This document shows, in pieces, positions 4,052-55,463 of a DNA stretch of 64,000 nt (its first letter is position 1; the number at the start of each line of letters is the position of its first letter). The position numbers were made by a program, and so were the translations under genes. The notes beneath the pieces were generated by a model. The model worked only from the letters and a program-made list of their open reading frames with translations, did no database searches and had not been told where the DNA came from. This DNA comes from an uncultured delta proteobacterium (GTDB lineage: Bacteria; Desulfobacterota; Syntrophobacteria; BM002): positions 1-64,000 of the forward strand of contig CAVQGX010000018.1 of NCBI GenBank assembly GCA_963712115.1. Direction: 5' to 3'.

Positions 4052-4420
4052 ATGCTTGACTTTCAAAAAACTGGCGGGCTGGTACCAGCTATCGTTCAGG
4101 ACGATGACACCGGGCAGGTATTGATGCTGGCGTATATGAATGAGGAGGCCTGGGAGAAGACGCTTAGCAGCGGCAAAGCTCATTACTGGAGCCGCTCTCG
4201 ACAGAAGTTGTGGCTTAAAGGGGGGACTTCAGGCCATATTCAAGAGGTCCGTGCCATTCACCTGGATTGCGACCAGGACACAGTGCTACTCAAGGTTCAC
4301 CAGGTGGGCGGAGCCGCTTGCCACGAGGGATATGGGAGCTGCTTCTACCGCAAGCTTGAGGGCGGCGAGCTCATAACCACTGCAACCAGAGTATTTGATC
4401 CCAAGGAAGTCTACAAGTGA
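4052..4420 (+). CDS. hisI: Phosphoribosyl-AMP cyclohydrolase
   Basis: [15 protein letters not shown]..LWxKG, DCDxD, ACHxGxxSCF. Confidence 0.95.
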
Positions 4421-4566
4421 GATGTGGGATGTGAGATCAAAATGTAGAATCTCAAAACTCACATCACATATCTCACATCGCTCAAGTGAATTTTTGTGTG
4501 CTTAGGATTTCGAGTTTCGAATTAGACTGCGGCTTAGCCGCATTAGAAGAGGAGGTAATTTTCATC

Positions 4567-5439
4567 GTGCAACAGTTGAGACTAGGCGTGCCCAAGGGCA
4601 GCCTTCAGGACGCTACTATAAGTTTATTTCAAAAATCCGGATGGCGAATTTCACTCAGCTCTCGCAATTACTTTCCGGAGATCAATGATTCCACAATAAA
4701 TTGTTCCATTTGCCGGGCTCAAGAAATGTCACGCTATGTAGAGAGTGGCACCTTCGATGTAGGGCTAACTGGAAAGGACTGGATACTAGAAAACGGTTCC
4801 CAGGTAAAAGTGGTTGCGGATTTAGTCTATTCCAAGGTGAGTCAAAGACCGACTCGATGGGTACTGGCAGTTCCCCTGGAGTCAGAAATCAAAGAGCTGG
4901 CCGACTTGGAAGGCAAGAAGATCTCCACGGAACTGACGAACTTCACCCGCAGTTACTTCAAGGAAAAGGGTGTAAATGTAGTGGTGGAATTTTCTTGGGG
5001 TGCGACAGAGGCAAAGGTTATTGACGGGTTATGCGACGCTATTGTTGAGGTCACTGAAACGGGCAGTACTATGCGGGCCAATGGCTTGAGAATAGTCCAT
5101 GAGCTTATGCAGTCCAACACTCAGTTGATTGCCAATTTCGACTCCTGGAAGGACCCATGGAAAAGGGAAAAAATAGAGCAGATTTCCCTTCTTCTAAAAG
5201 GTGCGCTGAAGGCTGAGAATATGGTTGGTCTGAAGATGAATGTGCCTGAAGACAAAGTGGGGGATGTGATGGAAATTCTTCCAAGCCTCAATGCTCCTAC
5301 TGTATCGCACCTCTACCAGAGTAAGTGGTTGGCAATTGAGGTTGTGGTCGACAAGGACCAGGTACGTGAACTCATCCCCGCTCTCTTGAAGCGCGGGGCA
5401 GAGGGTATTATTGAATATCCCCTGCATAAGGTGATCTAG
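4567..5439 (+). CDS. hisG: ATP phosphoribosyltransferase (long form)
   Basis: PKGSL, RAQE, GATE, ETGSTM; GAGGAGG RBS before GTG at 4567. Confidence 0.95.
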
Positions 5440-5698
5440 AAGCAGCTTCAGTGGGCATGGAGCATGGGGCATGGAGTAAAGAGAGATGGGAGGTCGGGCA
5501 AGAGGAGGATTCAAACGCGGAAGTCGGAATGCGGAACGTGGAATTCTTTTCTGTGCTGATGGCCAACGGGCTAAACCGGCAAAACCGGCCAAACTGGCGA
5601 AACGCATTGAACGATTTCAAGAGCCAATATCCCATGACCAAATTTTAGGCACTTTAGTACACTTTAGCTCATTTTAGACATTTAGGTAAATTCTGCCT

Positions 5699-6907
5699 AT
5701 GATTACCAAACGCGCCGAAGAAATAAGGCCTTTTATAGTCATGGATGTGCTCGAGCGTGCCCAGGAGCTCGAAAAGCAGGGGGAGCATGTAATCCATTTG
5801 GAAGTGGGAGAGCCGGATTTCGATACTCCCACCTGTATCCGTGAAGCTGGCGAAAGGGCGCTGAGAGAAGGAAAAACCCGCTACACCCACAGCCTGGGGC
5901 TCCTGGAACTACGAGAGGCCATTTGTGAACAGTACAAAAAAAATTATGGAGTGAAGATTGCTCCAGATCAAATTATTGTTACTTCTGGAACCTCACCTGC
6001 CATGTTGCTGATTTTCGGGGCCTTGCTGGAAGCAGGAGACGAGGTAATCATTTCGGACCCACACTATGCCTGTTATCCCAACTTCATCAGATTTGTCGAG
6101 GGTGTTCCAATCAGGATACCCGTGGCCGAAGAAGATGGTTTCCAATTTAGGCCCGAAGAGATTCGCCGGAAAACAACACCTCGCACCAGGGGGATCTTCA
6201 TTAACTCGCCTGCCAATCCTACCGGAAACCTTTTGTCCCCAGAGCGGATGGCCGAAATTGCCGACCTTGGATCGATGGTTATTTCAGATGAGATCTACCA
6301 TGGCCTGGTTTATGAGGGAGAAGAGCATACAATCCTAGAATACACTGACGAATGTTTCGTCTTGAATGGCTTCTCAAAGCTATATGCCATGACTGGCTGG
6401 CGCCTGGGCTATGTTATTGCACCTCAACGTTTCGTCCGACCGATGCAGAGAATGCAGCAGAATTTTTTCATTTCTGCCAGTGCAATGGCCCAGTGGGCTG
6501 GAGTCGAAGCCCTGAGAAGTAAAGAGGCGGCTGAAGAAGTGGCGCGCATGGTAAGCACCTACGACGAGCGTCGACGCTACATGATCCAGCGACTCAGAAA
6601 AATGGGTTTTGGTATTACCGTTGAACCGACCGGTGCGTTTTATGTTTTGGCCAATGCCAAGAGATTCAGCAGCGACTCTTACCGCTTCGCCTTTGATATT
6701 CTGCACAATGCCAAGGTGGGTGTTACTCCAGGAGTTGATTTCGGCCCGAACGCGGAAGGGTATATCCGGCTTACCTATGCGAACTCTCTAGAGAACATTG
6801 CTGAAGGGATGGACCGGCTAGAGCGTTACTTGGAGAAGCTGCAACCGGCAAGTTCCGCTCAAAGCGCAGAGCGGATATCAGATCACAAAAGAAAAACTGG
6901 CGGTTGA
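5699..6907 (+). CDS. Class I/II PLP-dependent aminotransferase (aspartate aminotransferase-like)
   Basis: GEPDF, NSPANPTG, SDEIY, FSKLYAMTGWRLG. Confidence 0.92.
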   Translation: MITKRAEEIRPFIVMDVLERAQELEKQGEHVIHLEVGEPDFDTPTCIREAGERALREGKTRYTHSLGLLELREAICEQYKKNYGVKIAPDQIIVTSGTSPAMLLIFGALLEAGDEVIISDPHYACYPNFIRFVEGVPIRIPVAEEDGFQFRPEEIRRKTTPRTRGIFINSPANPTGNLLSPERMAEIADLGSMVISDEIYHGLVYEGEEHTILEYTDECFVLNGFSKLYAMTGWRLGYVIAPQRFVRPMQRMQQNFFISASAMAQWAGVEALRSKEAAEEVARMVSTYDERRRYMIQRLRKMGFGITVEPTGAFYVLANAKRFSSDSYRFAFDILHNAKVGVTPGVDFGPNAEGYIRLTYANSLENIAEGMDRLERYLEKLQPASSAQSAERISDHKRKTGG

Positions 6908-7013
6908 AATATTAACCCAGGTTTACTCAGCTCCTAAAATGGCCAGACCAAAATAGGTCTTCGCTTTCCTTAATCATTTCCAACGCTATGCGCCATGAGC
7001 TCTGCTCTGAACA

Positions 7014-7604: not shown

Positions 7605-7738
7605 TCATTTCGCATTTCACATTTCTCATTGTTCATTCAAGACTTGGGACTTTGACGCACAGGAAAAATTAATAGTCCATAGATGACAAATGTGAAATGG
7701 CGGATGATAAATGACAAATGACAAATGAGAAATGAAAA

Positions 7739-8188
7739 ATGAGAGCAGTAGTACAAAGGGTGAAAGAAGCCAGTGTGGCTGTGGAAGGCCAGGAGGTGGG
7801 GCGCATCGGCCAAGGCATCCTGGTCCTGCTAGGAGTGGGGCACAAAGACGGACCGGAGGATGCCAAGTACACGGCGGAGAAAGTGGTTCATCTGAGGATA
7901 TTTGCTGATGAACAGGGCAAGATGAATAGATCTCTTCTTGATGTGGATGGCGGCCTGTTGGCTGTATCCCAGTTTACCCTTTGGGGAGACTGCCGCAAGG
8001 GGAGAAGGCCTTCATTTGTGGCCGCCGCTGAGCCTGCCAAGGCCGAAGCATTATATGAAGCTTTTATTGATCATGTCAGGAGTATTGGTGTGACCGTGGC
8101 CTCTGGACGCTTCCAGGAGATGATGGAGGTATCTCTGGTGAATGACGGTCCGGTTACTCTGTTGCTCGATAGCAAGAAGGAGTTTTGA
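7739..8188 (+). CDS. dtd: D-aminoacyl-tRNA deacylase
   Basis: [19 protein letters not shown]. Confidence 0.97.
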
Positions 8189-8194: not shown

Positions 8195-8660
8195 GGCATG
8201 GAGCATGGAGCATGGAGCATGGAGAAAGGGGCACGGAGGTGAGAATGGCTAAATTCAGATTTCAGGACTTAAGAATCTGGCAGTTTGCTATTGAGCTTGC
8301 AGACGAACTCTTTGACATCGCCGATGATCTTGAGCGAAGGAAACTCTACCGTTTCGCTGATCAGATAAGAGGTGCAGGAATGTCAATGTCAAACAACATC
8401 TCTGAAGGGTCCGGATCGGATTCCAAGAGGGAGTTCGCGCGATTTCTGAACATAGCGCGAAGATCCACATTTGAAAATGCGAATGTTACCATTCTTCTTG
8501 AGAGACGAGGTCTTCTATCGATAGAGAGATCCAATAAACTTCTGGAGAACCTCGAGCTTCTCTGTCGACAAATTAGCAGTTTCAAGAACACACTTAGATG
8601 AAGGAACAGGGTTTTTCAGCTTTGATTTTACTCCATGCTCCATGCCCCATGCTCCATGCC
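8195..8660. mobile_element. Cassette bounded by inverted (GGAGCAT)n arrays carrying a four-helix-bundle gene
   Basis: 8195-8224 is the reverse complement of 8631-8660 at 29 of 30 positions. Confidence 0.6.
8245..8601 (+). CDS. Four-helix-bundle protein (23S rRNA IVS protein / TIGR02436-like)
   Basis: FQDLRIWQ..DQIRGAGMSMSNNISEGSG..F.RFL.IAR.S.FE signature; GGAGG RBS. Confidence 0.9.
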   Translation: MAKFRFQDLRIWQFAIELADELFDIADDLERRKLYRFADQIRGAGMSMSNNISEGSGSDSKREFARFLNIARRSTFENANVTILLERRGLLSIERSNKLLENLELLCRQISSFKNTLR

Positions 8661-8670
8661 CTGGTAACCA

Positions 8671-9194: not shown

Positions 9195-9421
9195 TAGCCC
9201 GGATATTTCATGAATCACTTGCTGCGATCACGGATATGGCCGTCCTTCTCTCCGAGCTGTAGGCTCTACGAGCCGGAGGCCGAGCGTCCTCGGGTGTCGG
9301 CCCCTGCGGCGTACCATTCAGGTACGCCTCGAGACCAATCCCGCGGTACCGCGGGACGGTTGCCCGGAGGCACGCCCATCTTCGTGATCTCGTGACAGCA
9401 ATTCATGCAACATCCAGGCTA
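9195..9421. mobile_element. MITE-like repeat with terminal inverted repeats (copy 1, with a 32-nt nested insert)
   Basis: TAGCCCGGATATTTCATGAAT...ATTCATGCAACATCCAGGCTA; inverted homolog at 55464-55658. Confidence 0.7.
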
Positions 9422-9432
9422 GGAGACTTTGG

Positions 9433-11183: not shown

Positions 11184-11489
11184 CTTGCCATTGGGTCTGG
11201 TTTCCCATCCCTTGCCAAGAGAGACGGGAGATTTATCGCCATAAAATGCACTCTAGTTAACTAGATTAACGGGGCAGACAAAGATCTCAAAAGAAATTTC
11301 CACATTGGTGTCAAACTCTTTGCGTATTTCGTGGCCTTCGTGCTTATATATATTGTAGCGAAATAGTTCAAGCTTGGTTTTAACAAGAGACTATTAAAGT
11401 TTGACCCCATTTGGACGAAATGATATGGGGATATTGGTTTTGAGCCCAGGAAAGATGGGCTATACTTGCGGAGAGATAAGGAGGCGGCC

Positions 11490-12104
11490 ATGGCTGCATC
11501 AAAAACGAAATTGAATAGAAGGGAAGGAAAAAAAGGCGTTGGGACCTACACACTCATTGCCATATTGATACTAGTGCTTGGACTTCTCTTTGCTGTCAGC
11601 ATGAGCAATAGATCAACCTACCAGTTTGTGAGCAACGGAGAGACAATTACCTTGTGGAAAGGTAAATTTATCCCCAAGGGCTCGGAGCCAGAGAAAAACT
11701 TCGACCCTCTGCAAGCGGGTGAGCTAGACGCAAGTGGACTAACGGGCAAGAGTTACGTTGGGCAAGAGGCCGCTTACAAGGCTTTGTTCGGTCATCTGAT
11801 GGCTCTTATTGCTGCCGAGTCAGCCAAAGGAAAAGAAGCCGACCTCAACAAGCTTAAAACCTTATTGGACAAAGGCGAGAACCTTCTTAACCGCGGCGAG
11901 AGGGGGGGTGTGGAGCTGTTGGACGCTAGATTTCAATTGGCTAAAGCTCTGGTTGCCGTTGCCGAGATGAGTCTTGAGCGAGCTTACAGTAAAGCTCTGC
12001 CAGTATACGAAGAAGCTATTAAATCAGGAACAGGAGACAAAGAAACTCTAGCGATAAAGAGGGATAGCATGCAGTCGGTAGTGGAATCTGCTACCTCGGA
12101 ATAA
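11490..12104 (+). CDS. Membrane-anchored hypothetical protein
   Basis: AAGGAGG RBS; single N-terminal TM segment; helical C-terminus. Confidence 0.7.
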   Translation: MAASKTKLNRREGKKGVGTYTLIAILILVLGLLFAVSMSNRSTYQFVSNGETITLWKGKFIPKGSEPEKNFDPLQAGELDASGLTGKSYVGQEAAYKALFGHLMALIAAESAKGKEADLNKLKTLLDKGENLLNRGERGGVELLDARFQLAKALVAVAEMSLERAYSKALPVYEEAIKSGTGDKETLAIKRDSMQSVVESATSE

Positions 12105-12120
12105 AGCTAGCCCCTGTGGG

Positions 12121-16618: not shown

Positions 16619-17056
16619 GTGTTTTTTGATTTCGCCAATGTTTTCATTTTCATCATCCTTGGGCTGGCCATGACCTTTGTGATCATTACGGTTTCAAGGC
16701 TTCTGGCCCCTCGGGTTCAGGATAACCCGGACAAGTTTACCACCTACGAGTGTGGCGAACGTCCCGTGGGCTCGGCCTGGATACTGTTTAACTTCAGGTT
16801 CTATGCGGTAGCACTGGCCTTTCTAATTTTCGACATCGAATTAGCCTTTGTTTTTCCTTGTGTAGTTATTTTCAAAAAATGGCTCAAGCTGGGTGTGGGA
16901 TTTTTGGCCCTGATTGAAGTTGTGGTATTTGTCGTCATCCTTTTCCTTGGCTTGATCTACATGTGGAACCGGGGCGACCTCAAGTGGACCAAGGAAGTGC
17001 CAGAGGAATTGGAGGAGGGAGTAATATTGGAGGAAGAAAGACCGATAGTCTTCTGA
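16619..17056 (+). CDS. nuoA: NADH-quinone oxidoreductase subunit A
   Basis: YECG, FY..AL.FLIFDIE. Confidence 0.95.
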   Translation: MFFDFANVFIFIILGLAMTFVIITVSRLLAPRVQDNPDKFTTYECGERPVGSAWILFNFRFYAVALAFLIFDIELAFVFPCVVIFKKWLKLGVGFLALIEVVVFVVILFLGLIYMWNRGDLKWTKEVPEELEEGVILEEERPIVF

Positions 17057-17102
17057 ACCGATTCTCCGCAAAAGACTTATGTCCATTTAAAGGAAAACTG
17101 AG

Positions 17103-17600
17103 ATGGTAAATATTTATCATAAGATGCCTTCCGAGGGGTTTTTTGGTGCTGTTTTCACCACAGTTGATAAGGCCTTAAACTGGTTCAGACTATCTTCGGT
17201 CTGGTACCTTCTCTTCGGTCTGGCCTGTTGCGGCATTGAACTGATGCAGACCGGCGGGCCGCGGGCTGACATTGATCGAATAGGTTGCGTGCCTCGTCCC
17301 ACTCCCCGACAGGCAGACCTGATGATCGTGGCCGGCACCCTGACTTACAAAATGGCCTCGAGGCTGCGCCTCCTCTACGATCAGATGGCAGAACCGAAAT
17401 ATGTCATTGCCATGGGAAGTTGCGCCAATTGCGGCGGTCTCTTTCAACTTTCCTATTCAGTGGTCAAGGGGGTGGACAAGATTGTGCCGGTGGACGTCTA
17501 TGTTCCTGGCTGTCCACCAAGGCCAGAGGCTCTGACAGAAGGGATTTTGAAGCTCCAAGAGAAAATTCGCCAAGAACGATTTCTGGTGAAAAAAGCATAA
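17103..17600 (+). CDS. nuoB: NADH-quinone oxidoreductase subunit B
   Basis: [25 protein letters not shown]. Confidence 0.95.
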
Positions 17601-18139
17601 TGGAAACACGATCAATCCTAGAAAGAATCAAACGGATTATTGGAGATGCTGATCTGGAATGGGTCGATGAGCAGCCGGGAGATCCCTATTTATTAGTAAC
17701 CAAAGAGAAGTTGCTACGGCTGGCCATTTACCTAAAGGGTGATCGTTATCTCGCCTTTGACACACTTGTGTGTTTGAGCGGGGTGCACAATATGGGGGAT
17801 GAAGATGAAATTGAGGTGGTCTATCATCTTTATTCGTTACGCCACCGCCACCAGTTCATTCTCAAAGTCAAGCTGGATCGACCCGTATTTTTCCCCCATT
17901 TCTATCTCAGAGTAGATTCGGTCTCAGGAATCTGGCCTGCTGCCGGCTGGATGGAACGGGAGGCCTATGACATGTTCGGCATCCATTTTGTCGGGCACAA
18001 TGATTTCCGCAGGTTGCTCCTTCCCCCTGACTGGGAAGGTCACCCACTACAGAAGGACTATCAAGAATCTGCAGCCTACCGAGATATAAGTACAACCAGG
18101 GAAGAGGTTGAAGGGATATTAGTGGGGTTACAGGAGTAA
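17600..18139 (+). CDS. nuoC: NADH-quinone oxidoreductase subunit C
   Basis: W.ERE.YDMFGI.F.GH..RR.L.P..W.GHPL.KDY; ATG overlaps the nuoB stop. Confidence 0.93.
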   Translation: METRSILERIKRIIGDADLEWVDEQPGDPYLLVTKEKLLRLAIYLKGDRYLAFDTLVCLSGVHNMGDEDEIEVVYHLYSLRHRHQFILKVKLDRPVFFPHFYLRVDSVSGIWPAAGWMEREAYDMFGIHFVGHNDFRRLLLPPDWEGHPLQKDYQESAAYRDISTTREEVEGILVGLQE

Positions 18140-18142
18140 TAG

Positions 18143-19258: not shown

Positions 19259-19318
19259 GACGCAAAGCGCATGGCGCATAGCGAAATGCCAGCAGGCAGC
19301 TAGCAGCCGGCAGGCAAA

Positions 19319-19378
19319 GAGTCACTTGCCTCCGGCGTCATTAGGTCACTACGCTCCGCTGTCATTTGTTGTAAGAGG
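19319..19378. repeat. 60-bp dispersed repeat (other copies 43083-43142, 51021-51080, inverted 55283-55342)
   Basis: GAGTCACTTGCCTTCGGCGTCATTAGGTCACTACGCTCCGCTGTCATT..TTGTAA. Confidence 0.9.
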
Positions 19379-19536
19379 TGGAAGCCAGAGGTCAGAAGTC
19401 GGAGGCCGGAAGTCAGAGGTCACCTGTAAATTTCGAATTGCGAATTTTTTAGCTGACAGCTGATCGCTGAGAGCTGAAAGCTAATCTCAACGGGCTAAAC
19501 CGGCAAGACTGGCTAAACTAATTGAGAGATTCTCGT

Positions 19537-19561
19537 GTAGGAGCGGCTTTCCAGCCGCGAT
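19537..19561. repeat. GTAG-type REP palindrome
   Basis: GTAGGAGCGGCTTTCCAGCCGCGAT; interrupted copy at 10460-10501. Confidence 0.7.
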
Positions 19562-19659
19562 CTAACGGTTTCAACGACTTGAACGATTTGAACGATTTGA
19601 ACGATTTGAACGACCAGGCATTTTAGACACTTTAGTTCAAACTTTAGGCATTTGTTCGC

Positions 19660-20997: not shown

Positions 20998-21006
20998 GGA
21001 GGAAAT

Positions 21007-21648: not shown

Positions 21649-21654
21649 GGGAAG

Positions 21655-22155: not shown

Positions 22156-22157
22156 TC

Positions 22158-22481
22158 GTGTCCTACAGTCTTCCAAGTTTTCTAATTGTAAGTTCCCTAC
22201 TCTTTTGCCTGGGTATGTTCACCGTGCTCACCAGGAGGAACGCCATTGGCGTTCTCATGGGAATCGAACTGATTCTAAATGGAGCTGGCCTCAACTTCGT
22301 TGCCTTTTCTCGCTTTCTCCAACCGTCTCAGACGGCAAGCCTTCTGAGTGGTCAGGTTTTTACTTTATTCATCATTGCCATTGCCGCAGCAGAGGTGGCC
22401 GTGGCCTTGGCCATTGTCCTTGTCCTATACAGCCAGATGAGGACTATTGATGTGGAAGATTTCAAGGAGCTTCGAGGCTAG
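22158..22481 (+). CDS. nuoK: NADH-quinone oxidoreductase subunit K
   Basis: RRN..LMGIELILN, AAAEVAVALA. Confidence 0.95.
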   Translation: MSYSLPSFLIVSSLLFCLGMFTVLTRRNAIGVLMGIELILNGAGLNFVAFSRFLQPSQTASLLSGQVFTLFIIAIAAAEVAVALAIVLVLYSQMRTIDVEDFKELRG

Positions 22482-22539: not shown

Positions 22540-22675
22540 ATGAAATTCGAAATCCCAATTTCTCAATGTTCAAAACAGGTGTGGAGGCGAAGACTTAGGT
22601 ATTTCTTGTTTTGATCATTTGGATTTTGGACATTCGGATTTGTTTCGAATTTAGATATTAGGATTTCGGATTTAA
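22540..22675. repeat. Empty inverted pair of ATTTCGG-type heptamer arms (sister locus 44545-44705)
   Basis: AAATTCGAAATCC...TCAATGTTCAAAAC facing GTTTTG...GGATTTGTTTCGAATTTAGATATTAGGATTTCGGATTT. Confidence 0.75.
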
Positions 22676-26383: not shown

Positions 26384-26562
26384 AGAGCAGGCAGCTGCCA
26401 GCAGGCAGCAAGGAGAACTCAGAGGTCAGAGATCAGATGTCAGAGGTCGGGGGGATAGCTGATCTCTGATCTCCGACTTCTGACCTCTGTGATGGACGAC
26501 TTCAACGACTTGAACGGCTTTAACGATTTCGACGAATCCGTGACAAAGGGGAAAGCAAGATA

Positions 26563-41048: not shown

Positions 41049-41276
41049 AAACCGGTGGCTTTTATTGGAAAGGTTTCAGTGTTCAGGTTTCAGATTTTAC
41101 CCTTGATTTTTCTTTTTGCTGACACCTGAAACCTGACACCTGAAACCCTGAGATTTGGTGTTTGGAATTTGATATTTTGCAATTCTCCACTACTCCAATA
41201 CTCCATTGCTCCAATAAGTAATTTCTTTGCTCAGTATGCTACACTCGCTCTGAATTTATGAAGGCTACAAGAAACT

Positions 41277-42854: not shown

Positions 42855-43177
42855 TGCATTTCATATTTAACGTTTACTTGCAATCGCTTCGCTCTGAACT
42901 ATCCTCAGAGTGCTCTGGCCATCTTCGAAGGACTCTACTCCAATTTTGAATAATAACATTATCCCCAGAGAGTTCATACCAATTCCTGTAGGAGCAAGCT
43001 GTGCGTGCCACGACGCAGAGCGCATTGCGCTGCGAGACGAGACTTTCAGCCGGCAGCTTACAACGGGCAGCTGGCAGGCAAAGAGTCACTTGCCTTCGGC
43101 GTCATTAGGTCACTACGCTCCGCTGTCATTTATTGTAAAAGGTTGAAGCCAGAGGTCAGAAGTCGGAGGTCGGAAGA

Positions 43178-43413
43178 CAGAGGGCAGCAGGTCACTAGGC
43201 ACTAAGGACTAGGCACTAAACACCAAATTATATAAGAATTCAGGAGTCAGAATCCAGAATCCAGCAGGGAGAAACATAAAGAGTGTTCTTCCATTTTGGC
43301 TACTGGCTCCTGACGCCTGGCTCCTTGAGCTTTAAGACTTGAACGACTTAAAAGACTTAAAAGACTTAAAAGATTTCCTTTGACCTATGAGCTTTCAGCT
43401 GTGAGCTGATTTG
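43178..43413. repeat. About 230-bp composite repeat; inverted copy at 55036-55261
   Basis: Near-identical; differs by one AAAAGACTT unit and one A. Confidence 0.92.
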
Positions 43414-43444: not shown

Positions 43445-43510
43445 ATGCGTAACTGGGGCCCCAAAAAAAATTGGGGACTGAGCGGAGCGATGCGAGCGCG
43501 AAGAAACGAA
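43445..43510. repeat. About 65-bp repeat; second copy 45643-45710
   Basis: AACTGGGGCC...TTGGGGACTGAGCGGAGCGA.GCGAGCGCGAAGAAA. Confidence 0.8.
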
Positions 43511-44490: not shown

Positions 44491-44765
44491 GCAGCTTTAT
44501 TCAGTCTCATGACCGCACAATTATTTATCTTAGGTGGGCCTTCAAAATTCTAAATCCTAAGCACGAAGCACGAAACAAATTCAAAATACCAATTCTTCAA
44601 TGTTCAAAATAAAATTGAACAAATAGACTCATCCTCGGTTTTGGTCCTTTGAATTTGGTGAATTCGAATTTGTTTCGGATTTCGATATTCGGATTTCGGA
44701 TTTCTATTGGTCTAATATTTTTATGCTGCCCGGCATAGGTCTTTTTGGGAATAGATGATTTGCCT

Positions 44766-45542: not shown

Positions 45543-45705
45543 CATTTCTCATTTCTCATCTGTCATTTGCTATTTGGCAATTGTGATTTATCATTAAATA
45601 CTACTCTGCCGCGATTACCAGTGGCGGATATCGAATGAAGAAATGCGAAACTGGGGCCTCGACCAAGAGGTTGGGGACTGAGCGGAGCGAGGCGAGCGCG
45701 AAGAA

Positions 45706-48700
45706 ATGAAAAATGATAACTGCATCAGGATAATAGGTGCAAAACAGAATAATCTAAAAAATCTGAGCCTGGACCTTCCCCGGGGACAACTTATCGCCGT
45801 TACTGGTGTGAGTGGCTCCGGCAAGTCAAGCCTGGCCTTGGAAACTCTTTATGCTGAGGGTCAACGGCGCTATGTTGAAACCTTCTCGCCCTATGCCCGC
45901 CAGTTCCTGGACAGACTTGACAGACCTCAGGTGGAGGCCATTATTGGCATCCCTCCAGCCATAGCCATAGAGCAAGGAAACCGCATCAAAAGTTCCCGTT
46001 CCACTGTGGGCACAATAACGGAACTTGCAGACCATCTCAAATTGCTCTTTGCCCGAACCGGAGTGCTCCATTGTGGGCAATGCGCCAGACCTGTTCATCA
46101 GGATAGCCTTGAGAACATTTGGTCCTCACTATCAAACGTCCCAGCAGAAACCCCGGCTCTGATAACTTTTCCATTGGAAAAGGAGGGTCGAACCATTGAG
46201 GATATTCGTCTCTATTTGTGGCGTCATGGGTTCCGTCGTCTTTGGCACCAGGGAAAAATACTTAACCTGGATGAACAGTCGATTCCTAATGACGAGCATC
46301 TTGATGTGTTGGTGGATAGAACTGTCTGGAGTCCGGAGAATAGAAAGCGGGTTTTTGACTCGATGGAGCAGGCCTACCATTTCGGCGAGGGTAAGCTCAA
46401 GGTAGTATTCCCCCCTGAGGTCGAGTATCAATTCTCAGCCACATACCATTGTGCTTTCTGTGACATTAGCTATCCTGCCCCCTCATCCCATCTCTTTTCC
46501 TTTAACAGTCCCTTGGGTGCCTGCGAGACCTGTCGAGGCTTCGGCCGAATTATCGATGTGGACCTCGATTTGGTGATACCAGACAAAAACTTGTCCTTGA
46601 AAAAGGGTGCAATCAAGCCGTGGTCCACAGGGCGGATGGAATACTATGATCTTATGGATTTCTGCACCGCGTTGGGAATCCCCACAGATATGCCCTTTAA
46701 CAAACTGTCACCAGGCCAGCAGGAGGCAGTAATAGAAGAAAGTGACGAATTCTACGGAGTCCGCGGCTTCTTTCGCTGGCTCGAAACCAAGACTTACAAG
46801 ATGCACGTTCGGGTTTTTCTTTCCCGCTACCGGGCCTATCTCACCTGTCCAGCCTGCGGAGGGAGTCGTTTTCAGCCTCTCACTCTGCTTTATCGGGTAG
46901 GTGATATGAACATTTCCGAAGTCAACCAGATTTCCATTACTCGGGCGCTGGTTTTTTTTAGACAGGTTGCCGGGACAATCAAGGCTGACCCTGCGTCTGC
47001 CTTGGTGTGCAGAGAGATCATTGCCCGTCTTACTTATTTGTCGGAAGTGGGGCTCGGCTATTTGAGTATGGATAGATCATCTCGTAGCCTTTCCGGAGGT
47101 GAGGTTCAGCGGGTCCACTTAACCCGTGCGCTGGGTTCACCGCTGGTCAATACTCTCTATGTGTTAGATGAGCCCAGTGTGGGTTTGCATCCCCGGGACA
47201 ACCAGAGACTGATAAACATCCTTAGGGCTCTCACACGCCAGCACAACACAGTAGTGGTAGTGGAGCACGACCCAGAGATCATTCGCGCCAGCGACTACCT
47301 CGTAGATCTGGGCCCGGGAGCAGGAGAGCGGGGCGGGGAGGCAGTATTTGCTGGACCCAGCGCTGATGTGGCTTCCGCCGAAAACTCTAGAACTGCTTTG
47401 TATCTCACTGGCCGCAGTCGCATCTCCCGACCAGGCAAAAGAAGAAAACCTCGTTCAGACCGTTGGTTGAATTTACTGGGCATAAAAACGCATAACCTCC
47501 AAAACCTTGATGTGCGCATTCCTTTGGGGCTTATGGTTGCTGTAACCGGAGTGTCCGGTTCCGGGAAAAGCACCTTAGTAGAAGAGGTACTCTATCGCAA
47601 CTGGCTTCGGGCCAAGGGGCTTGCCACTGACCCCCCTGGTTACTGTCGGAAGATAGAGGGTTGGAAGCATATCAACGATGTGGTGCTCATTGATCAGCAG
47701 CCCATTGGAAGATCTCCCCGGGCCAATCTGCTTACTTACACCGGAGCTTTGACCCCCATAAGGGATTTGTTTGCCAGGACGGATTTGGCAAAGCTGAGGA
47801 AATACGGTCCCGGTCATTTCTCCTTCAATGTGCCGGGTGGTCGCTGTGAGGCCTGTGCCGGCCAGGGATCCGAGAAAGTTGAGATGCAGTTTCTGGCTGA
47901 TGTTTATTTGGAATGTGGAGTGTGTAAAGGGAGCCGTTTCCGGGAAGAAATCCTGGAGGTGAGCTACCGGGGTTTTTCAATTGGACAGGTTTTGGGACTG
48001 ACCCTAAATGAAGCCATGGACCTCTTTGCAGATGAGCCGCGAGTCTTACGTGCTCTCTCCTTCCTGATTGGAGTGGGATTGGATTATCTGCGATTGGGAC
48101 AGCCCATCAGTACACTTTCGGGCGGTGAGAGTCAACGCTTGAAGCTTGCCCGCTCCCTGCAAGTAAAGGGTGACAAAAATACCCTAATCATCCTGGATGA
48201 ACCAACCACAGGGCTCCATGCTGATGACACCAAGTTGCTGGTGAAGACCTTGAATCGTCTTGTTGATGGAGGGAGCACAATTGTGGTGGTGGAACATAAT
48301 CTGGACGTAGTCCAATCTGTGGACCATGTAATTGACCTCGGCCCGGAAGGAGGAGATGAAGGAGGTAAGGTAGTCGCTGCAGGCACGCCAGAGGAAATCA
48401 GCAAGTCTTCAAAATCCCATACGGGCCGTTTTCTTGCCAAATACTGGGAGTCCACTGAAGAGGTCGTTGCCACCGGCAAGTTGCCCCAAAGCACTGATGA
48501 CCATGAGTTAGTGATGATCCGTGGCGCTCGGGAACATAATTTGAGAAATCTAAACCTGGATCTGCCCCGCGAGCAGCTAGTGGTAATTACCGGTGTGTCC
48601 GGGTCGGGCAAATCAACCCTGGCATTCAACGTCCTATTTGCCGAGGGCCAGCGCCGCTATTTGGATAGTCTTTCGACCTTTGCCAGGCAATATCTACCTA

Positions 48701-51003
48701 TTCTGGATCGGCCTGAGGCCGAGGAGATAAGCGGAGTGCCCCCAACTGTGGCCATTGATCAACGGAGCAGTCAAATGGGGCCTCGCTCCACTGTGGCAAC
48801 TATAACTGAGATCTATCACTACCTTCGCCTTCTGTTCAGCAAGGTAGGAGAGCCACACTGCCCAACCTGCGGTGACGGTATTAGCGCTATGAGCCCGGAA
48901 CAAATAACCCGAGACATGCGCCAAAAATTCAAAAGTAAGAATTTAATATTGCTTGCCCCCAAAATAATTGGTCGCAAGGGGTTTCACCGCCAGATCCTGG
49001 AGCGAGCTGTGGTTCAAGGCTATGACCAGGCCCGCATAGACGGCCAGTTATTATCTCTAGATCCTATTCCGAAGTTGAGACGATTTCAGGAACACGATGT
49101 GGAGATAGTCATTCGCAGGTGGCAAAGGCTTTTAAAGAAAAACGATATTCAACTCGCAGAGGCAGTGGACGAAGCCCTGGCTGTGGGCGATGGGCAAGTG
49201 GTCGCCTGGGGTGGTAACGGAAGAGAGGTGTTCTACAGCCGTCGTTTGACCTGCGGTCGTTGCCACCTCGGAATGCCTAGCCTCGATCCCCGGCTGTTCT
49301 CATTCAACAGCAGGCATGGCGCCTGCGAGGGTTGCGAAGGTGTCGGCCGATCGAGAGGTTCCGGGGATGAATCGGTCTGTATGGTATGCAATGGCTCTAG
49401 ATTGAACCAAACGGCTTTGAGCGTCAGGATTGGGGGTTTGAATATATGGGAAGTCTGTGCTCACTCTGTGTCAGCCGCCCGCGAGCTTTTCCTTTCTTGG
49501 CAGTTTGCCGGCCGAGAGGCTAAGATTGCCCAACCTCTTATTGATGAGATTCTCAACCGTCTCCATTTCCTCGAACAGGTAGGTCTAGGCTATCTGCACT
49601 TGGAGCGCAGTGCAGATACTCTGTCGGGTGGTGAAGCACAGAGGATCAGGTTAGCGGCTCAAATGGGGTCTAATCTGCGTGGCGTCTGCTACATTCTAGA
49701 TGAACCTACTGTTGGCCTTCATCCTCGTGACAATGAAAAGCTTTTGGAAACGCTCACTGAACTAAAGCGGAAAGGCAACACAATTGTAGTCGTCGAGCAC
49801 GATGAGGAGACGATCAGGAGGGCAGATCACCTCATTGATTTAGGTCCAGGTGCCGGGCAACACGGGGGTAATTTGGTTGCCAGTGGCACCCTGGCGGATT
49901 TGCAAAGAACACCTCAGTCAGTCACCGGCAGTTACCTGAATGGGGACGGTCGGAGGCGGTTAACTTCCAGGGAGAGGAAACCACCCTCAGGCAACTGGCT
50001 CAAACTGCACGGGGCTCGGGCGCGCAATCTTAAAAATATAGATGTTTTCTTGCCCCTGGGAACCTTTAGCTGCGTTACCGGCGTATCAGGGTCCGGTAAG
50101 TCCACTCTAGTGGAAGAAACACTGTACAAGGCCCTGGCCACCAAATTAAACAAATCCGATATTCAACCGGGGTCTCACCAAGATTTGCTTGGTTGGGAGA
50201 ACCTGGACCGGGTAATGAAGGTGGATCACAGTCCCATTGGTCGGACACCTCGCTCTGTGCCGGCTACCTACGTGGGGGTTTTAACTGAGATACGGCGGCT
50301 TTTTGCTTTAACCCCCGAAGCACGAGCCAGAGGTTACGGGCCGGGTCGGTTTTCATTCAACCTAGCCACTGGAAGATGCCAGAATTGCAAGGGTCAGGGG
50401 CAAGTTAGGGTAGAAATGGCCTTTTTGCCCGATGTCTATGTTAAGTGTGAGCAGTGTGGTGGTCACCGTTACAATAGTGAAACTCTGGCAGTACGGTACA
50501 AGGGAAAGAACATAGCAGAAGTTCTAGGGATGACCCTGGAAGAAGGAGCGGATTTTTTTGGGGCAGTAGGCAAGATTCAGCGCTCACTGCAATTGCTTGT
50601 TGATCTAGGCTTGGGATACCTTGGCATGGGGCAACCCAGTCCTACACTCTCCGGTGGTGAGGCTCAGAGACTGAAGTTAGCAAACGAACTCGCCACCAAC
50701 CACAAGGCCCGGATCCTCTATATCTTGGATGAACCCACCACCGGCCTTCACATTGCTGATGTAGAAAAGCTGGTAAAGGTATTGCAGGCACTGGTTGATC
50801 GAGGTCACACCCTAGTGGTGATCGAGCACAACTTGGAAGTAATAAAAGAGGCTGATTACATTATCGACCTTGGCCCTGAGGGGGGTGATGGAGGAGGAGA
50901 AGTTGTGGCGTCCGGCTCGCCCGTGGAGCTGTTGAACAAAACAGAGAGATCATACACAGCGCGTTACCTTAAAGCATATCTTCAAGGCAGTAATGGCGCA
51001 TAA
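45706..51003 (+). CDS. uvrA: Excinuclease ABC subunit A, tandem double-length form
   Basis: Four TGVSGSGKS Walker A and four LSGGE motifs; EGQRRY twice; zinc fingers. Confidence 0.96.
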   Translation: MKNDNCIRIIGAKQNNLKNLSLDLPRGQLIAVTGVSGSGKSSLALETLYAEGQRRYVETFSPYARQFLDRLDRPQVEAIIGIPPAIAIEQGNRIKSSRSTVGTITELADHLKLLFARTGVLHCGQCARPVHQDSLENIWSSLSNVPAETPALITFPLEKEGRTIEDIRLYLWRHGFRRLWHQGKILNLDEQSIPNDEHLDVLVDRTVWSPENRKRVFDSMEQAYHFGEGKLKVVFPPEVEYQFSATYHCAFCDISYPAPSSHLFSFNSPLGACETCRGFGRIIDVDLDLVIPDKNLSLKKGAIKPWSTGRMEYYDLMDFCTALGIPTDMPFNKLSPGQQEAVIEESDEFYGVRGFFRWLETKTYKMHVRVFLSRYRAYLTCPACGGSRFQPLTLLYRVGDMNISEVNQISITRALVFFRQVAGTIKADPASALVCREIIARLTYLSEVGLGYLSMDRSSRSLSGGEVQRVHLTRALGSPLVNTLYVLDEPSVGLHPRDNQRLINILRALTRQHNTVVVVEHDPEIIRASDYLVDLGPGAGERGGEAVFAGPSADVASAENSRTALYLTGRSRISRPGKRRKPRSDRWLNLLGIKTHNLQNLDVRIPLGLMVAVTGVSGSGKSTLVEEVLYRNWLRAKGLATDPPGYCRKIEGWKHINDVVLIDQQPIGRSPRANLLTYTGALTPIRDLFARTDLAKLRKYGPGHFSFNVPGGRCEACAGQGSEKVEMQFLADVYLECGVCKGSRFREEILEVSYRGFSIGQVLGLTLNEAMDLFADEPRVLRALSFLIGVGLDYLRLGQPISTLSGGESQRLKLARSLQVKGDKNTLIILDEPTTGLHADDTKLLVKTLNRLVDGGSTIVVVEHNLDVVQSVDHVIDLGPEGGDEGGKVVAAGTPEEISKSSKSHTGRFLAKYWESTEEVVATGKLPQSTDDHELVMIRGAREHNLRNLNLDLPREQLVVITGVSGSGKSTLAFNVLFAEGQRRYLDSLSTFARQYLPILDRPEAEEISGVPPTVAIDQRSSQMGPRSTVATITEIYHYLRLLFSKVGEPHCPTCGDGISAMSPEQITRDMRQKFKSKNLILLAPKIIGRKGFHRQILERAVVQGYDQARIDGQLLSLDPIPKLRRFQEHDVEIVIRRWQRLLKKNDIQLAEAVDEALAVGDGQVVAWGGNGREVFYSRRLTCGRCHLGMPSLDPRLFSFNSRHGACEGCEGVGRSRGSGDESVCMVCNGSRLNQTALSVRIGGLNIWEVCAHSVSAARELFLSWQFAGREAKIAQPLIDEILNRLHFLEQVGLGYLHLERSADTLSGGEAQRIRLAAQMGSNLRGVCYILDEPTVGLHPRDNEKLLETLTELKRKGNTIVVVEHDEETIRRADHLIDLGPGAGQHGGNLVASGTLADLQRTPQSVTGSYLNGDGRRRLTSRERKPPSGNWLKLHGARARNLKNIDVFLPLGTFSCVTGVSGSGKSTLVEETLYKALATKLNKSDIQPGSHQDLLGWENLDRVMKVDHSPIGRTPRSVPATYVGVLTEIRRLFALTPEARARGYGPGRFSFNLATGRCQNCKGQGQVRVEMAFLPDVYVKCEQCGGHRYNSETLAVRYKGKNIAEVLGMTLEEGADFFGAVGKIQRSLQLLVDLGLGYLGMGQPSPTLSGGEAQRLKLANELATNHKARILYILDEPTTGLHIADVEKLVKVLQALVDRGHTLVVIEHNLEVIKEADYIIDLGPEGGDGGGEVVASGSPVELLNKTERSYTARYLKAYLQGSNGA

Positions 51004-51272
51004 TCCAGCAGGCAGCTAATGAGTCACTTGCCTTCGGCGTCATTAGGTCACTACGCTCCGCTGTCATTCATTGTAAGAGGTAGAGGACAGAATTCAGGTT
51101 TCAGCTTTTTTGTTTCTCTTCCCTGACACCTGACACCTGAAACCCTGCGAATTGTTGTTTGGGATTTCCGATTGCTCTCGGCAGCCTCACCTTGGTTGCA
51201 TGGCGGCGGCAGTGGCGGGCAGGTGCTGTGGACCGGGTGGGGAGGATTGAATAAAACTATTCTATGATCTTA

Positions 51273-51680: not shown

Positions 51681-52229
51681 GATCTCAACCAGTTATCTGT
51701 AATTGCAGGGTTGAACTTTCATTGTTGCCTAAACTTCTACGCAAAGCACACAAATCACTCAATCAATGTTTGAGTCTCACAACAGCCTGTGGAATAAAGG
51801 TTTTTTCGTTAAGCAAGAGGATCAGCAGGAGCGGGAGGGAGAGAGATCCAGCCAGATCCGTGATCGCAGTAGGCCATTTATGAAACGTCCGGGCTATGGC
51901 TAATTTACTAGATGGTGGGGTCAAGGATCAAGAAAAATCAGAGGACAGAAGACAGAAGTCGGAGGTCGGAAGTCAGAGGACAGAAGACAGAATTTCGGAT
52001 TGCGGATTTGGGATATGGGATGTGAGATATGAGATTTGGGATTGCGGATTTTTATCTGATCGCTGACGGCTGAATAGAACCGGCAAAACTGGCTAAACAG
52101 GCCAAACGAATTGTGAGGTTTGAACGATCGAATGACTAATGATAAACATTTATGATAGAATCGCGCTGCTTCGAGACAAGGAAGCATCCGGGCTAGAATC
52201 GATCAAGTAAACAAGGATAATAGTTAGAT

Positions 52230-53797: not shown

Positions 53798-53803
53798 AAA
53801 CCA

Positions 53804-54163
53804 CTATTCTTTGTGGCCGAGAATCATGAAATCTTCACCTTCCTGGAGAATGTATTCCTTATCTCCCAATCCGAATTCAGGGTCGTACCGGAAGGGTATT
53901 CTAAGATCATCTGCAGTTGCTATACGTTCCAAAATATAAGAGAGTACCGCGGTCATTTCATGGATGGCAGGAAGCATAACGTTTTGGGGAATGGCTATTT
54001 CCTTGAGGCCGAAATGGGTGTATATGCCACGGGTAACAAGTACTCCTTTTGCGGGTAGATGGACAATTTCCACCACTTGAGCAGCGTTTTTTTGATTAGC
54101 TATAGTTGCTACGATGACTTCCTGGGTGGAATCGGAACCGTTAAATAACTCGGGCATTAACAT
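53804..54163 (-). CDS. Hypothetical protein
   Basis: AGGAG RBS; co-oriented with the FHA and CBS genes. Confidence 0.65.
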   Translation of the reverse strand: MLMPELFNGSDSTQEVIVATIANQKNAAQVVEIVHLPAKGVLVTRGIYTHFGLKEIAIPQNVMLPAIHEMTAVLSYILERIATADDLRIPFRYDPEFGLGDKEYILQEGEDFMILGHKE

Positions 54164-54525
54164 CTCCTGGGCTCAACTATTTTGTGCGTCTTCAAGTTAA
54201 TTACACGACTTCACCAGATTTGACAAGTCTTGCCCTCAGAGCCAAATTCGCTTGGCACTTCTGTTTATTGTTGAGTTTTTCCGACATGCACGTCTCATAC
54301 CACCTATATCGCATAGAGCATGGCGCATAGCGTCAATTAGTAGCATCGTTGAAGCCGTTGAAGTGGATGAAATCGTTCAAGTCGTTCGAATCGGTGCTGG
54401 AGGCCTCTCCCAGAGGAAAATCTCACACTTAGTTTGGCCGGTTTAGCCCGGTTGCCAGGTAGCACAGACAAGAATTCCACGTTCCGCGTTCCGACTTCCG
54501 CGTTTAAATCCTCGTCTCGCCTTAT

Positions 54526-54542
54526 TTGGCATGCTGGTTGCT
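54526..54542 (+). promoter_or_regulatory. sigma54 promoter
   Basis: TTGGCATGCTGGTTGCT: GG-N10-GC. Confidence 0.65.
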
Positions 54543-54668
54543 AATATAGTAAACGGTTAAAATCATATTACTCTTTAAGTGGTTGTTATATTTAAAAAAT
54601 TATCATGCAGGGGCGATTGGCCTTACCCGATTTTGTATACAATGAGATACATATACGGGAGGACTAAG

Positions 54669-54920
54669 ATGAAACTTACGGGTAAATTAGCTTACTACGA
54701 AAGCAAACTAAAACTTCTCAGTAACCCGAATTTAGATGCCAGTCTCTTGAAACTTGGATGCTGGGATGCTCCTTTCGAGAAAGCGGGGCTTTCGGATCCG
54801 CGAAGATGTCAGTATTTTATTAAGCAGTGCAAAAAATATTATGAGCAAAAGATAGATCGGATTCAGAAGGAGCAGCGCGCCGCTCGTCGCGGCAAATGGT
54901 ATGTCCGTTTGGGACTGTAG
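54669..54920 (+). CDS. Small basic hypothetical protein
   Basis: GGGAGGA RBS before ATG 54669. Confidence 0.6.
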   Translation: MKLTGKLAYYESKLKLLSNPNLDASLLKLGCWDAPFEKAGLSDPRRCQYFIKQCKKYYEQKIDRIQKEQRAARRGKWYVRLGL

Positions 54921-55463
54921 GCAAAATCTGGTTCACTCAGAACATCTCTAGGCATTATCTGTAATGCTTTCGCATGGCGCTAAGTGCGGAGCTCATAGCG
55001 TCAATTGGTCTAATCGTTAAATCCGTTCAAGTCGTCAAATCAGCTCACAGCTGAAAGCTCATAGGTCAAAGGAAATCTTTTAAGTCTTTTAAGTCGTTCA
55101 AGTCTTAAAGCTCAAGGAGCCAGGCGTCAGGAGCCAGTAGCCAAAATGGAAGAACACTCTTTATGTTTCTCCCTGCTGGATTCTGGATTCTGACTCCTGA
55201 ATTCTTATATAATTGGTGTTTAGTGCCTAGTCCTTAGTGCCTAGTGACCTGCTGCCCTCTGCCCTCTGACTTCCGACCTCTACCTATTACAACAAATGAC
55301 AGCGGAGCGTAGTGACCTAATGACGCCGAAGGCAAGTGACTCATTGCCTGCCAACTGTCTTGTGTCCTCTGATCCCTTGCCTCTGATTCCTTAACCCTTT
55401 TTATTGACTACACTGCTCAATTAAGATTAAATTGAACTCACCTATATAAAGATCAATGGTTGT

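Follow-up and report, generated by a model that had tools for sequence, protein, structure and literature searches.

Tandem heptamer arrays in operon spacers of a Syntrophobacteria genome share their repeat units with the arms of PF05635 gene cassettes

Introduction

What are the short tandem repeats that fill many spacers of a bacterial genome, often as facing inverted pairs with no open reading frame (ORF) between them, and why do they stand even inside operons? This question was raised by the first 64,000 nucleotides of contig CAVQGX010000018.1 in assembly GCA_963712115.1, which comes from an uncultured delta proteobacterium of the GTDB lineage Desulfobacterota; Syntrophobacteria; BM002. 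We refer to this whole stretch (G000:C18:1-64000) as the window, to the genome under study as G000, and to the compared genomes by handles of the form G0xx. A sequence-only reading of the window had proposed that the repeats are scars from repeated gain and loss of hairpin-bounded cassettes, each cassette lineage having its own repeat unit. The analysis presented here suggests that the spacer arrays are the arms of a cassette that resembles the intervening sequences (IVSs) of 23S rRNA and carries a gene of the protein family PF05635.

The G000 assembly was 4.9 Mb in 70 contigs, with 48.9% GC and a completeness of 94.4%. It encoded dsrA (575 bits, which exceeded the curated cut-off) and was a sulfate-reducer-type genome.

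Results

A PF05635 gene between facing heptamer arms

Only one facing pair in the window had an ORF inside it. At 8196-8661, between dtd and a DUF1285 gene, four copies of GCATGGA and four copies of CTCCATG enclosed a gene of family PF05635 (23S_rRNA_IVP), and the two arms were complementary at 20 of 21 positions (at 8203 and 8639). The product of this gene was an S23p/Avd-like four-helix bundle with the PDB relative 2gsc (E 1.5e-8), a protein from Xanthomonas campestris. The PDB relatives 2gsc and 2rld had five chains each, and the available text of PMC4990558 describes the 2gsc protein as a homopentameric ring.

Genes were tested for an inverted match of at least 18 of 21 positions between their 220-nt flanks. 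In G000, 11 of the 14 PF05635 hits passed this arm test, each with a different unit, compared to 18 of 1322 other ORFs of 100 to 200 aa, several of which were spurious frames in other repeats. Hairpin-bounded cassettes, which had been postulated with 8195-8660 as the example, were thus a real class, and their cargo was specifically a PF05635 gene. PF05635 genes were present in all 18 genomes of the genus (1 to 14 hits each), and 66 of the 81 genes with usable flanks reached 18/21 while 75 reached 17/21, although these genomes are kin and counts across them are not independent. A cross-phylum set of 80 loci was collected with a 7-sequence profile because a 28-sequence alignment was too divergent. 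It covered Bacteroidota, Chloroflexota, Planctomycetota, Gemmatimonadota, Acidobacteriota, Nitrospirota, Proteobacteria, Firmicutes, candidate phyla, and archaea. Here, 41 of the 76 testable genes reached 18/21; of 144 control positions, displaced by 800 nt within these loci, none did.

The arms had a median length of 4.4 units and were heptameric in 102 of the 136 arms scored; units of other PF05635 lineages included GATTGCG and GGAGTAAT. The median ratio of nonsynonymous to synonymous substitution rates was 0.079 (39 usable pairs out of 85, the others being saturated at synonymous sites), and the cassette gene is under purifying selection and functional.

Larger cargo was considered as well and was rejected. 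Of 19 ORFs located between like arrays 400 to 2100 nt apart, 16 matched ordinary Pfam families and 3 matched none. The families enclosed at such distances included dUTPase, TatA, HAD, ECH, RapZ, RadC, AhpC, and a Na/H exchanger, among others.

Protein lineages and their repeat units

Pairs of genus cassette proteins were compared to see whether both genes had an identical arm word, oriented alike with respect to the gene. Arm words were shared by 21/21 pairs at 90 to 100% identity, 48/52 at 80 to 90%, 33/62 at 70 to 80%, and 9/21 at 60 to 70%, but by only 7/2440 pairs below 40%. No pair above 40% identity shared an arm in flipped orientation. At 60% identity, 84 PF05635 genes fell into 29 clusters, between which identity was only 14 to 30%. 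The proposal that each lineage has a repeat unit of its own therefore held for the protein lineages of this genus.

The same units recurred in arrays that enclosed no gene. An arm of one of 75 genus cassettes was matched at 13 or more of 14 positions by 1593 of the 2070 period-7 arrays of G000 (77%), compared to 240 (12%) in a reversed-unit control; the corresponding counts were 172/422 versus 25 for 8-mers and 204/528 versus 28 for 9-mers. The unit vocabulary of gene-less arrays, empty and solitary, was therefore largely that of cassette arms, and the cognate gene was usually absent from the same genome.

Arrays and facing pairs across the genome

Tandem Repeats Finder (TRF) reported 4676 rows for G000, including 2115 of period 7, 426 of period 8, 541 of period 9, and 455 of period 14. 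Neighboring periods were scarce (87 rows of period 6 and 213 of period 10), and a 200-nt block shuffle of the genome gave 79 period-7 rows among 667 in total. Period-7 array bases were 89% outside crude ORF calls, in a genome that was 79% coding by those calls, and arrays of period 7, 8, 9, and multiples made up 7.5% of all noncoding DNA. With rotations and strands merged, G000 contained 274 distinct heptamer units.

Neighboring arrays of the same unit were predominantly inverted at short range: the inverted-to-direct counts were 137:7 below 50 nt, 32:7 at 50 to 100 nt, and 28:8 at 100 to 200 nt, or 197 versus 22 within 200 nt, and the bias was gone at 800 to 1500 nt (37:58). Of the 2070 period-7 arrays, 687 had an inverted partner at 12/14 or better within 300 nt, compared to 72 (reversed), 99 (complement), and 179 (direct) in the controls; of the 422 period-8 arrays, 148 had a partner within 300 nt, compared to 9 to 21. 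The facing inverted arrangement first seen in the window is real genome-wide.

Array density was a property of the genus and not of gene dosage. Period-7 arrays numbered 43 per 100 kb in G000, 53 in G013 (four PF05635 hits), and about 43 to 53 in the genus. Outside it, the sister-genus genome G018 had 4.8 (four hits), and G030, in which PF05635 had no hit, had 1.9; the shuffle gave 1.6.

Filled and empty alleles at orthologous spacers

The engB-dtd spacer of G000 contained no ORF, and the same arms enclosed a gene of 126 to 131 aa in G012 and G010, which was assigned to PF05635 by Pfam in the sister species (E 2.2e-15). In the alignment, G000 equaled G012 minus about 480 nt, and the ends of the missing segment lay in direct AAATGAN repeats flanking the gene. 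We infer that the gene was lost by deletion between these direct repeats, and the direction of the change is part of that inference; such a deletion would explain the long right arm of the G000 spacer. At the second locus, the dtd-DUF1285 spacer, the cassette was present in G000 and G014 (orthologous proteins 81% identical), G016 had GCATGGA x2.3 without a gene, other species had other units, and G005 had a spacer of 21 nt. Orthologous spacers thus occur in both filled and empty states. Of the two outcomes that would have spoken against the sequence-only reading, spacers that never hold cargo genes and arms lacking an inverted-pair bias, neither was observed.

Both flanks of 31 foreign cassettes were mapped onto G000, and the sites were sorted by script. 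Six were filled by the same lineage, 10 were filled by another lineage, 2 were gene-less with the same unit, 10 were gene-less with other arrays, and 3 were without arrays. Two rows were corrected by eye, both of them the engB-dtd case: the "other lineage" row of G012:C106 was an artefact of an interval that spanned two spacers, and G010:C77 was just under the threshold, with 7 words. After this inspection, 4/31 sites were gene-less with the same unit and 9 rows were filled by another lineage. The claim that the arrays are scars of cassette gain and loss was therefore supported at the engB-dtd and dtd-DUF1285 spacers but could not be extended to most arrays, since only 4/31 sites retained the same unit.

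The other-lineage rows were located on four spacers (C30:121.1-122.2, C30:122.5-123.3, C30:124.2-125.0, and C20:192.3-192.9 kb). The C20 spacer carried four unrelated PF05635 lineages in four species, each with its own arms, and some spacers have thus been colonized repeatedly.

A cluster was also found on C30. Three PF05635 cassettes of different lineages stood within 3.3 kb at G000:C30:121568-124795 (L259), with ORFs of 200 aa and 411 aa between them, and their three spacers held other lineages in other species.

Orientation, RNA structure, and operon junctions

The gene upstream of PF05635 was on the same strand in 68 cases and on the opposite strand in 2 in the genus, and 64 versus 9 across phyla; for the downstream gene, the genus counts were 52 and 19. 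The upstream arm was the one that was G-rich on the sense strand in 60 versus 13 genus cassettes and in 34 versus 6 cross-phylum cassettes. Gene-less hairpins between co-directional genes had the G-rich arm first in 113 versus 28 cases, and solitary arrays showed a weak polarity (508 versus 388). A polarity common to cassettes and gene-less hairpins is predicted by derivation of the hairpins from cassettes, and any orientation-dependent constraint would also fit it. The number of hairpins per spacer was alike for tandem (148/2862), convergent (34/566), and divergent (28/568) flanking genes.

Seven facing pairs of the window were folded as RNA and compared to dinucleotide shuffles, which gave z values from -1.7 to -5.5; a single arm, folded as a control, gave -0.08. 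Sense and antisense strands of the 148 hairpins between co-directional genes folded equally well (73:73, Wilcoxon p 0.94), and there was therefore no sign of RNA-level selection on the stems. Spacer-skipping joints in metatranscriptome contigs (4407>4549 and 22483>22758) were set aside. They were also present in X9, a run of unrecorded type, and other joints were entered as "between: not known," so we treat them as strain variants that are uninformative on processing or expression.

The nuo operon was, as the sequence-only reading had stated, interrupted three times, by 404 nt at nuoD|H, 240 nt at nuoK|L, and 182 nt at nuoM|N. The remaining junctions measured 2 to 12 nt, except nuoA|B (49 nt) and nuoL|M (80 nt), both of which were without arrays. 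Across 10 relatives, D|H, K|L, L|M, and M|N were expanded (I|J in most), with gaps of at most 404 nt, and B|C, H|I, J|K, and N|HK were mostly 2 to 24 nt. The nuoD-nuoH junction was expanded in all 10 with differing arrays, and units in nuo spacers differed between species, even between G000 and G002, whose NuoH proteins are 95% identical. The nuoK|L hairpin was homologous in 5/9 relatives (six species with G000) and was replaced in G002, G007, G013, and G001. In related strains from public runs, 7-nt and 21-nt indels were found within arrays at 4420, 4427, 7613, 7711, and 10403. These comparisons showed that copy number changes by whole units between strains and that rapid turnover affects only a few permissive junctions, with different cassette lineages re-using some of them.

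The arrays could also be host regulatory elements under selection, either intercistronic stem-loops that set how stable mRNAs are or how they are processed, or sites at which global regulators bind. The expansion of the same operon junctions in all relatives, the TTTAGRCAY 9-mers that directly precede the nuoH start in four species, and the orientation bias relative to transcription are in keeping with this idea. As far as the available texts go, host regulation has been proposed for the paired tandem 7/8/9-mers of Geobacter metallireducens (PMC2700814) and, by MacGregor, for TAACTGA repeats in Beggiatoaceae (PMC4679880), and most Xanthomonas repeats are transcribed (Rehm 2015, PMC4692102). 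However, the sequence, unit, and length at one junction varied among species whose flanking proteins were 85 to 95% identical, and some species had no array there; arrays were present or absent at the strain level, and stability was equal in sense and antisense. We consider host regulation improbable.

Features of the window

Pfam was run on 60 ORFs of the window. The gene order began with hisI, hisG, an aminotransferase gene, engB, and dtd, followed by the PF05635 gene and the DUF1285 gene; the nuo operon (11 subunits, nuoA-D and H-N) was located at 16619-28056, and the remainder included signaling genes and a UvrA-like gene encoding 1765 aa. Scans of the window with Rfam and ARAGORN gave no match, neither an rRNA nor a tRNA. 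TRF gave 70 rows there (Table 1); the period was 7, 8, 9, or 14 in most of them, and almost all stood in spacers. All spacers previously listed as repeat-filled contained the unit ascribed to them; at 37382 and 19621-19652, the units fell under the TRF threshold and were visible by eye.

Table 1. Arrays, hairpins, and the filled cassette in the window
Feature	Position	Strand	Composition and support
Gene-less hairpin, GATGTGA-type arms, hisI-hisG spacer	4417..4479	+	TRF (GTGAGAT x3 at 4417-4437); G-rich arm first; as RNA -26 kcal/mol, z -5.47 vs dinucleotide shuffles; identical unit in G014, other units or none in other species; 7-nt insertions in related strains
Mosaic of solitary arrays, hisG-aminotransferase spacer	5455..5685	+	GCATGGA x3, AACCGGCAA x4.3, TTTAGACAC x4.6 (5644-5685; TRF); each unit arms PF05635 cassettes elsewhere in genus
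Emptied cassette, engB-dtd spacer	7605..7742	+	CATTTCN x3.6, loop, AAATGAN x8.6; TRF: CATTTCA 7606-7630 opposite ATGACAA x8.6 7683-7742; fold z -2.06
Upstream arm of filled cassette, GCATGGA x4.1	8196..8224	+	TRF; 20/21 complementary to downstream arm
PF05635 gene, 118 aa, cassette cargo	8245..8601	+	Pfam E 2.4e-25
Downstream arm of filled cassette, CTCCATG x4.1	8631..8661	+	TRF (8631-8659)
Mosaic, nuoD-nuoH spacer	19261..19652	+	CGCATAG (TRF 19261-19283), 86-nt core, CAGAGGT, AATTTCG, AGCTGAA, AACGATTTG x5.6 (TRF 19564-19613), TTTAGACAC
Long gene-less hairpin, AAATCCG/ATTTCGG type, nuoK-nuoL spacer	22540..22675	+	-39.2 kcal/mol, z -3.11
Array, hairpin, and 9-mers, nuoM-nuoN spacer	26386..26535	+	AGCAGGC array, TCAGAGG/CTGACCT hairpin (TRF: TCAGAGG 26419-26448, CTGACCT 26459-26489), ACGACTTCA 9-mers; -43.5 kcal/mol, z -4.84
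AGGTTTC/CTGAAAC hairpin, then 8-mer array CAATACTC	41071..41216	+	Arms 41071-41097, 41119-41147 (TRF); z -4.78; hairpin unit and 8-mer unit both arm cassettes in genus
361-nt mosaic of arrays and 86-nt core	43040..43400	+	TRF
Gene-less hairpin, same family as nuoK-nuoL hairpin	44545..44705	+	TTTCGGA 44673-44704; z -3.94
CATTTCT/AAATGAN arms around small GC-rich insert	45543..45715	+	TRF (CATTTCT 45543-45568)
86-nt core, then weak CCTGAAA-type hairpin	51005..51146	+	CCTGACA 51122-51144; z -1.67; 12/200 shuffles fold as well
Mosaic	51939..52107	+	CAGAAGA x7.7, ATTTGGG x8.6, AACAGGCAA (TRF)
Mosaic	54306..54504	+	ATAGCGC (54306-54332), TCGTTGAAG 9-mers, TTCCGCG (TRF)
Inverted copy of 43040-43400 mosaic	55049..55392	-	TRF; 90.7% match over 55049-55357

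The two mosaic copies at 43040-43400 and 55049-55357, 12 kb apart, bracketed tyrA, a CxxCxxCC gene, the UvrA-like gene, and others. The 86-nt core occurred at 19304-19388, 43068-43152, 51005-51090, and 55290-55350 (minus strand), and there were 56 genomic copies. In one PF05635 lineage (G000:C3:31748-32062 and relatives), the arms were made of the GTCATTA...CGCTCCGCTGTCATT words of this core, so that some lineages have longer, non-heptameric arms.

A GC-rich insert (ACTGGGG...GGGGACT, then GAGCGGAGCG-type words) was found inside heptamer arrays at 43450-43510 and 45640-45705 and in the nuoK-L spacers of loci L018 and L020; homologous hairpins of some species were without it. The insert is reminiscent of the small dispersed repeats that Elhai is said to have described in Nostoc. 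TTTAGRCAY 9-mers were located directly upstream of start codons (window 5644-5685 and 19621-19652; L013, L016, and L023), in the case of nuoH in four species, and each unit contained an AGG that could serve as a weak ribosome-binding site. A dispersed, GC-rich element of 231 nt that contains a palindrome (CCGCGGTACCGCGG) was present at 9195-9425 and 55470-55660 (minus strand), with 150 blastn matches in G000, 54 of them near full length.

Other observations concerned genes. At 11225-12118, 892 nt were missing in related strains of three runs (X1, X2, and X9), an indel polymorphism that contained a 212-aa ORF (11466-12104) with no Pfam match. The 1765-aa protein at 45706-51003 had duplicated UvrA-type ABC, interaction, and DNA-binding domains and was about twice the normal length of UvrA. 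A phage-integrase-family gene at 57006-57851 was split into at least three frames; the small ORFs (58192-61073) and the 961-aa ORF (61083-63968) that adjoined it were all without Pfam matches.

Discussion

The reading that we favor, and consider probable, is that the spacer arrays are the arms of an IVS-like PF05635 cassette in full, emptied, or solitary form. The full cassette consists of an upstream arm of about four or five tandem units, usually G-rich on the sense strand, then the PF05635 gene, and then a downstream arm whose sequence is reverse complementary to the upstream one. Its position directly after a host gene of the same direction makes transcription by read-through from that gene probable. 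Loss of the gene would leave gene-less hairpins, in one case by the direct-repeat deletion proposed above, and solitary arrays would be later decay products or separately seeded copies. Pairing of the arms in the transcript would allow the insert to be tolerated inside operons, in line with the earlier proposal that mRNA hairpins loop it out, and the stem may be cut by RNase III as in the IVSs of 23S rRNA. The elements would be selfish or neutral and not host regulators.

The likeness to the IVSs of 23S rRNA has several parts. ORF-bearing IVSs of Leptospira and the Coxiella burnetii IVS with its S23p protein are described in the available text of PMC4990558, according to which excision of ORF-bearing IVS stems by RNase III is established for 23S rRNA; the same text quotes an older idea that the IVS ORF serves mobility, for which it gives no known mechanism. 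The cargo is PF05635 there as well, an inverted-repeat stem surrounds the ORF, and the element is within the transcript of essential genes. In contrast, the cassettes described here stand between protein-coding genes (dtd and the DUF1285 gene) and not in 23S helix 45, their arms consist of tandem 7- to 9-nt units, and there are hundreds of gene-less copies; RNase III excision is known for the IVSs only.

Several results weigh against the favored reading. Most arrays were not individually demonstrable as scars, with only 4/31 same-unit empties, and most orthologous comparisons showed replacement instead. About two thirds of the period-7 arrays were solitary, without an inverted partner, and period-9 arrays were essentially unpaired (43/528, compared to 16 to 36 in the controls). 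Only 448 of the 2070 period-7 arrays matched the 11 cassettes of G000 itself. Genes inside like arrays more than 500 nt apart are resident housekeeping genes and not cargo, and the kinship of the genus genomes and the equal folding of sense and antisense strands belong on the same side. RNase III (TIGR02191, PF14622) was not found in the 94.4%-complete G000 assembly, which is probably an assembly gap; its presence in 15/17 genus mates favors the cassette reading. The idea that loss of RNase III let hairpins accumulate was rejected because rnc was missing only in the G000 assembly and two incomplete genus mates. Lastly, PF05635 copy number did not predict array density, so gene dosage was discarded as an explanation.

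Some of these results suit the opposite order of events, in which the arrays came first. Slippage, or a process of the type that produced the short tandemly repeated repetitive (STRR) sequences of cyanobacteria, would make the heptamers, and PF05635 genes would lodge in, or be kept by, hairpins of a unit that their protein recognizes. Every array of that unit may be a target of the protein in trans, much as the repetitive extragenic palindromic (REP) doublets forming hairpins (REPINs) are targets of the REP-associated tyrosine transposase (RAYT). The independence of density from copy number, the 78% of G000 arrays without a cognate gene, the solitary majority, and the whole-unit changes between strains all agree with this order, as does the statement of Mrazek (2007), quoted in the accessible part of PMC4679880, that in many bacteria no long simple repeat is more common than the heptamer. 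However, slippage alone does not explain why each protein lineage is strictly paired with its unit in a fixed orientation. The arms around PF05635 genes in phyla without array-rich genomes, and the G-rich-first orientation common to gene-less hairpins and cassettes, are likewise unaccounted for. An arrays-first origin is a possibility to which we give limited credence.

No transposase, recombinase, or reverse transcriptase was associated with the cassettes, a further point against the cassette reading. The arrays could also be elements of the REP/REPIN or miniature inverted-repeat transposable element (MITE) type that depend for movement on a transposase gene at another genomic site. The genome does have an IS200/RAYT-like ORF with flanking inverted repeats, at G000:C20:238078-238593, an assignment made by eye from the translation and not confirmed by Pfam. 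The arms were inverted, and no transposase parent was found. Nevertheless, a single transposase cannot have all 274 heptamer units as substrates, the arms enclose a PF05635 gene and not a transposase gene, and no target-site duplications were seen in the spacer alignments, which were inspected without a systematic test. We therefore regard this explanation as very unlikely.

Bertels and Rainey reportedly described REP/REPIN elements with RAYT transposases in 2011. Here, too, the gene has its own cognate repeat on either side, the repeat family is lineage specific, and many gene-less inverted pairs are dispersed in the genome. However, the flanked gene encodes a four-helix bundle without known catalysis and not a Y1 (IS200-like) transposase, and the arms are tandem arrays where REP/REPIN elements have a single palindrome.

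The heptamer repeats of cyanobacteria, the STRR sequences, were reportedly described by Mazel in 1990. They share with the arrays of G000 several unit types of tandem heptanucleotides that are dispersed, intergenic, and high in copy number, with a function that is not known. In contrast, the host here carries dsrA and is not a cyanobacterium, short-range inverted pairing is the rule, and a cognate protein gene exists; none was associated with STRR sequences in the literature searched. Heptanucleotides of Calothrix are cited in the available text of PMC4692102, in which Rehm et al. (2015) describe the GGGAATC arrays of Xanthomonas. These arrays prefer about four units, stand between aligned ORFs, are transcribed, and include 70 to 75 convergent (inverted) pairs per genome (PMC4692102). 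They consist of one dominant G-rich unit that is read as a former of G-quadruplexes (G4), whereas most of the 274 units here are not G4-capable. The accessible portion of that paper makes no link to PF05635, although 2gsc, a PF05635 protein, comes from the same genus. In Geobacter metallireducens, Aklujkar (2009) reported three to five tandem units of 7, 8, or 9 nt in opposite-strand pairs at variable distance and in several unit classes; these sites number in the tens and are read as binding sites of global regulators, and the text available describes no cargo gene (PMC2700814).

PF05635 has also been equated with Avd, a protein of diversity-generating retroelements (DGRs), in the part of PMC10053308 that was available. 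The PF05635 profile did not reach the Avd-type structure 4DWL at E 0.01. A reverse-transcriptase origin through the Avd link was considered and rejected, since RVT_1 had no match in G000, and the neighbors of the cassette are dtd and the DUF1285 gene. Our search found no publication linking PF05635 or S23p to heptamer repeats; most subscription journals were outside its range.

To our knowledge, heptamer repeats in bacterial genomes have been unexplained since 1990, and PF05635 is a large family with solved structures for which we know of no function outside the DGR protein Avd. The findings may tie this old puzzle to one protein family. The element combines known kinds, the IVSs of rRNA and the STRR repeats, and what is new is the genus-wide quantitative link between arrays and cassette arms, the filled and empty alleles with a deletion footprint, the re-used spacers, the polarity common to full and empty forms, and the negative result for gene dosage. 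The genus is an extreme case: its arrays stand inside essential operons, filled and empty alleles exist in nature, insertion spacers have been re-used, and protein-unit pairs number in the dozens. Annotation can easily take such spacers for regulatory RNAs, terminators, or artefacts of assembly.

A more speculative proposal, which we put forward tentatively, is that PF05635 pentameric rings are sequence-specific readers of tandem heptamers that maintain or spread their own unit in trans. Each lineage would recognize its own unit, with about one unit per subunit, as the median arm length of 4.4 units would suggest. In this genus, the idea that a protein reads its own repeat becomes a simple binding question, and population data could address the mechanism of movement. 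If the proposal is true, the excess of bacterial heptanucleotides, the STRR sequences of cyanobacteria, the paired heptamers of Xanthomonas and Geobacter, and the ORF-bearing IVSs of rRNA would be one selfish system, comparable to REPIN/RAYT and built on a nonenzymatic nucleic-acid-binding protein.

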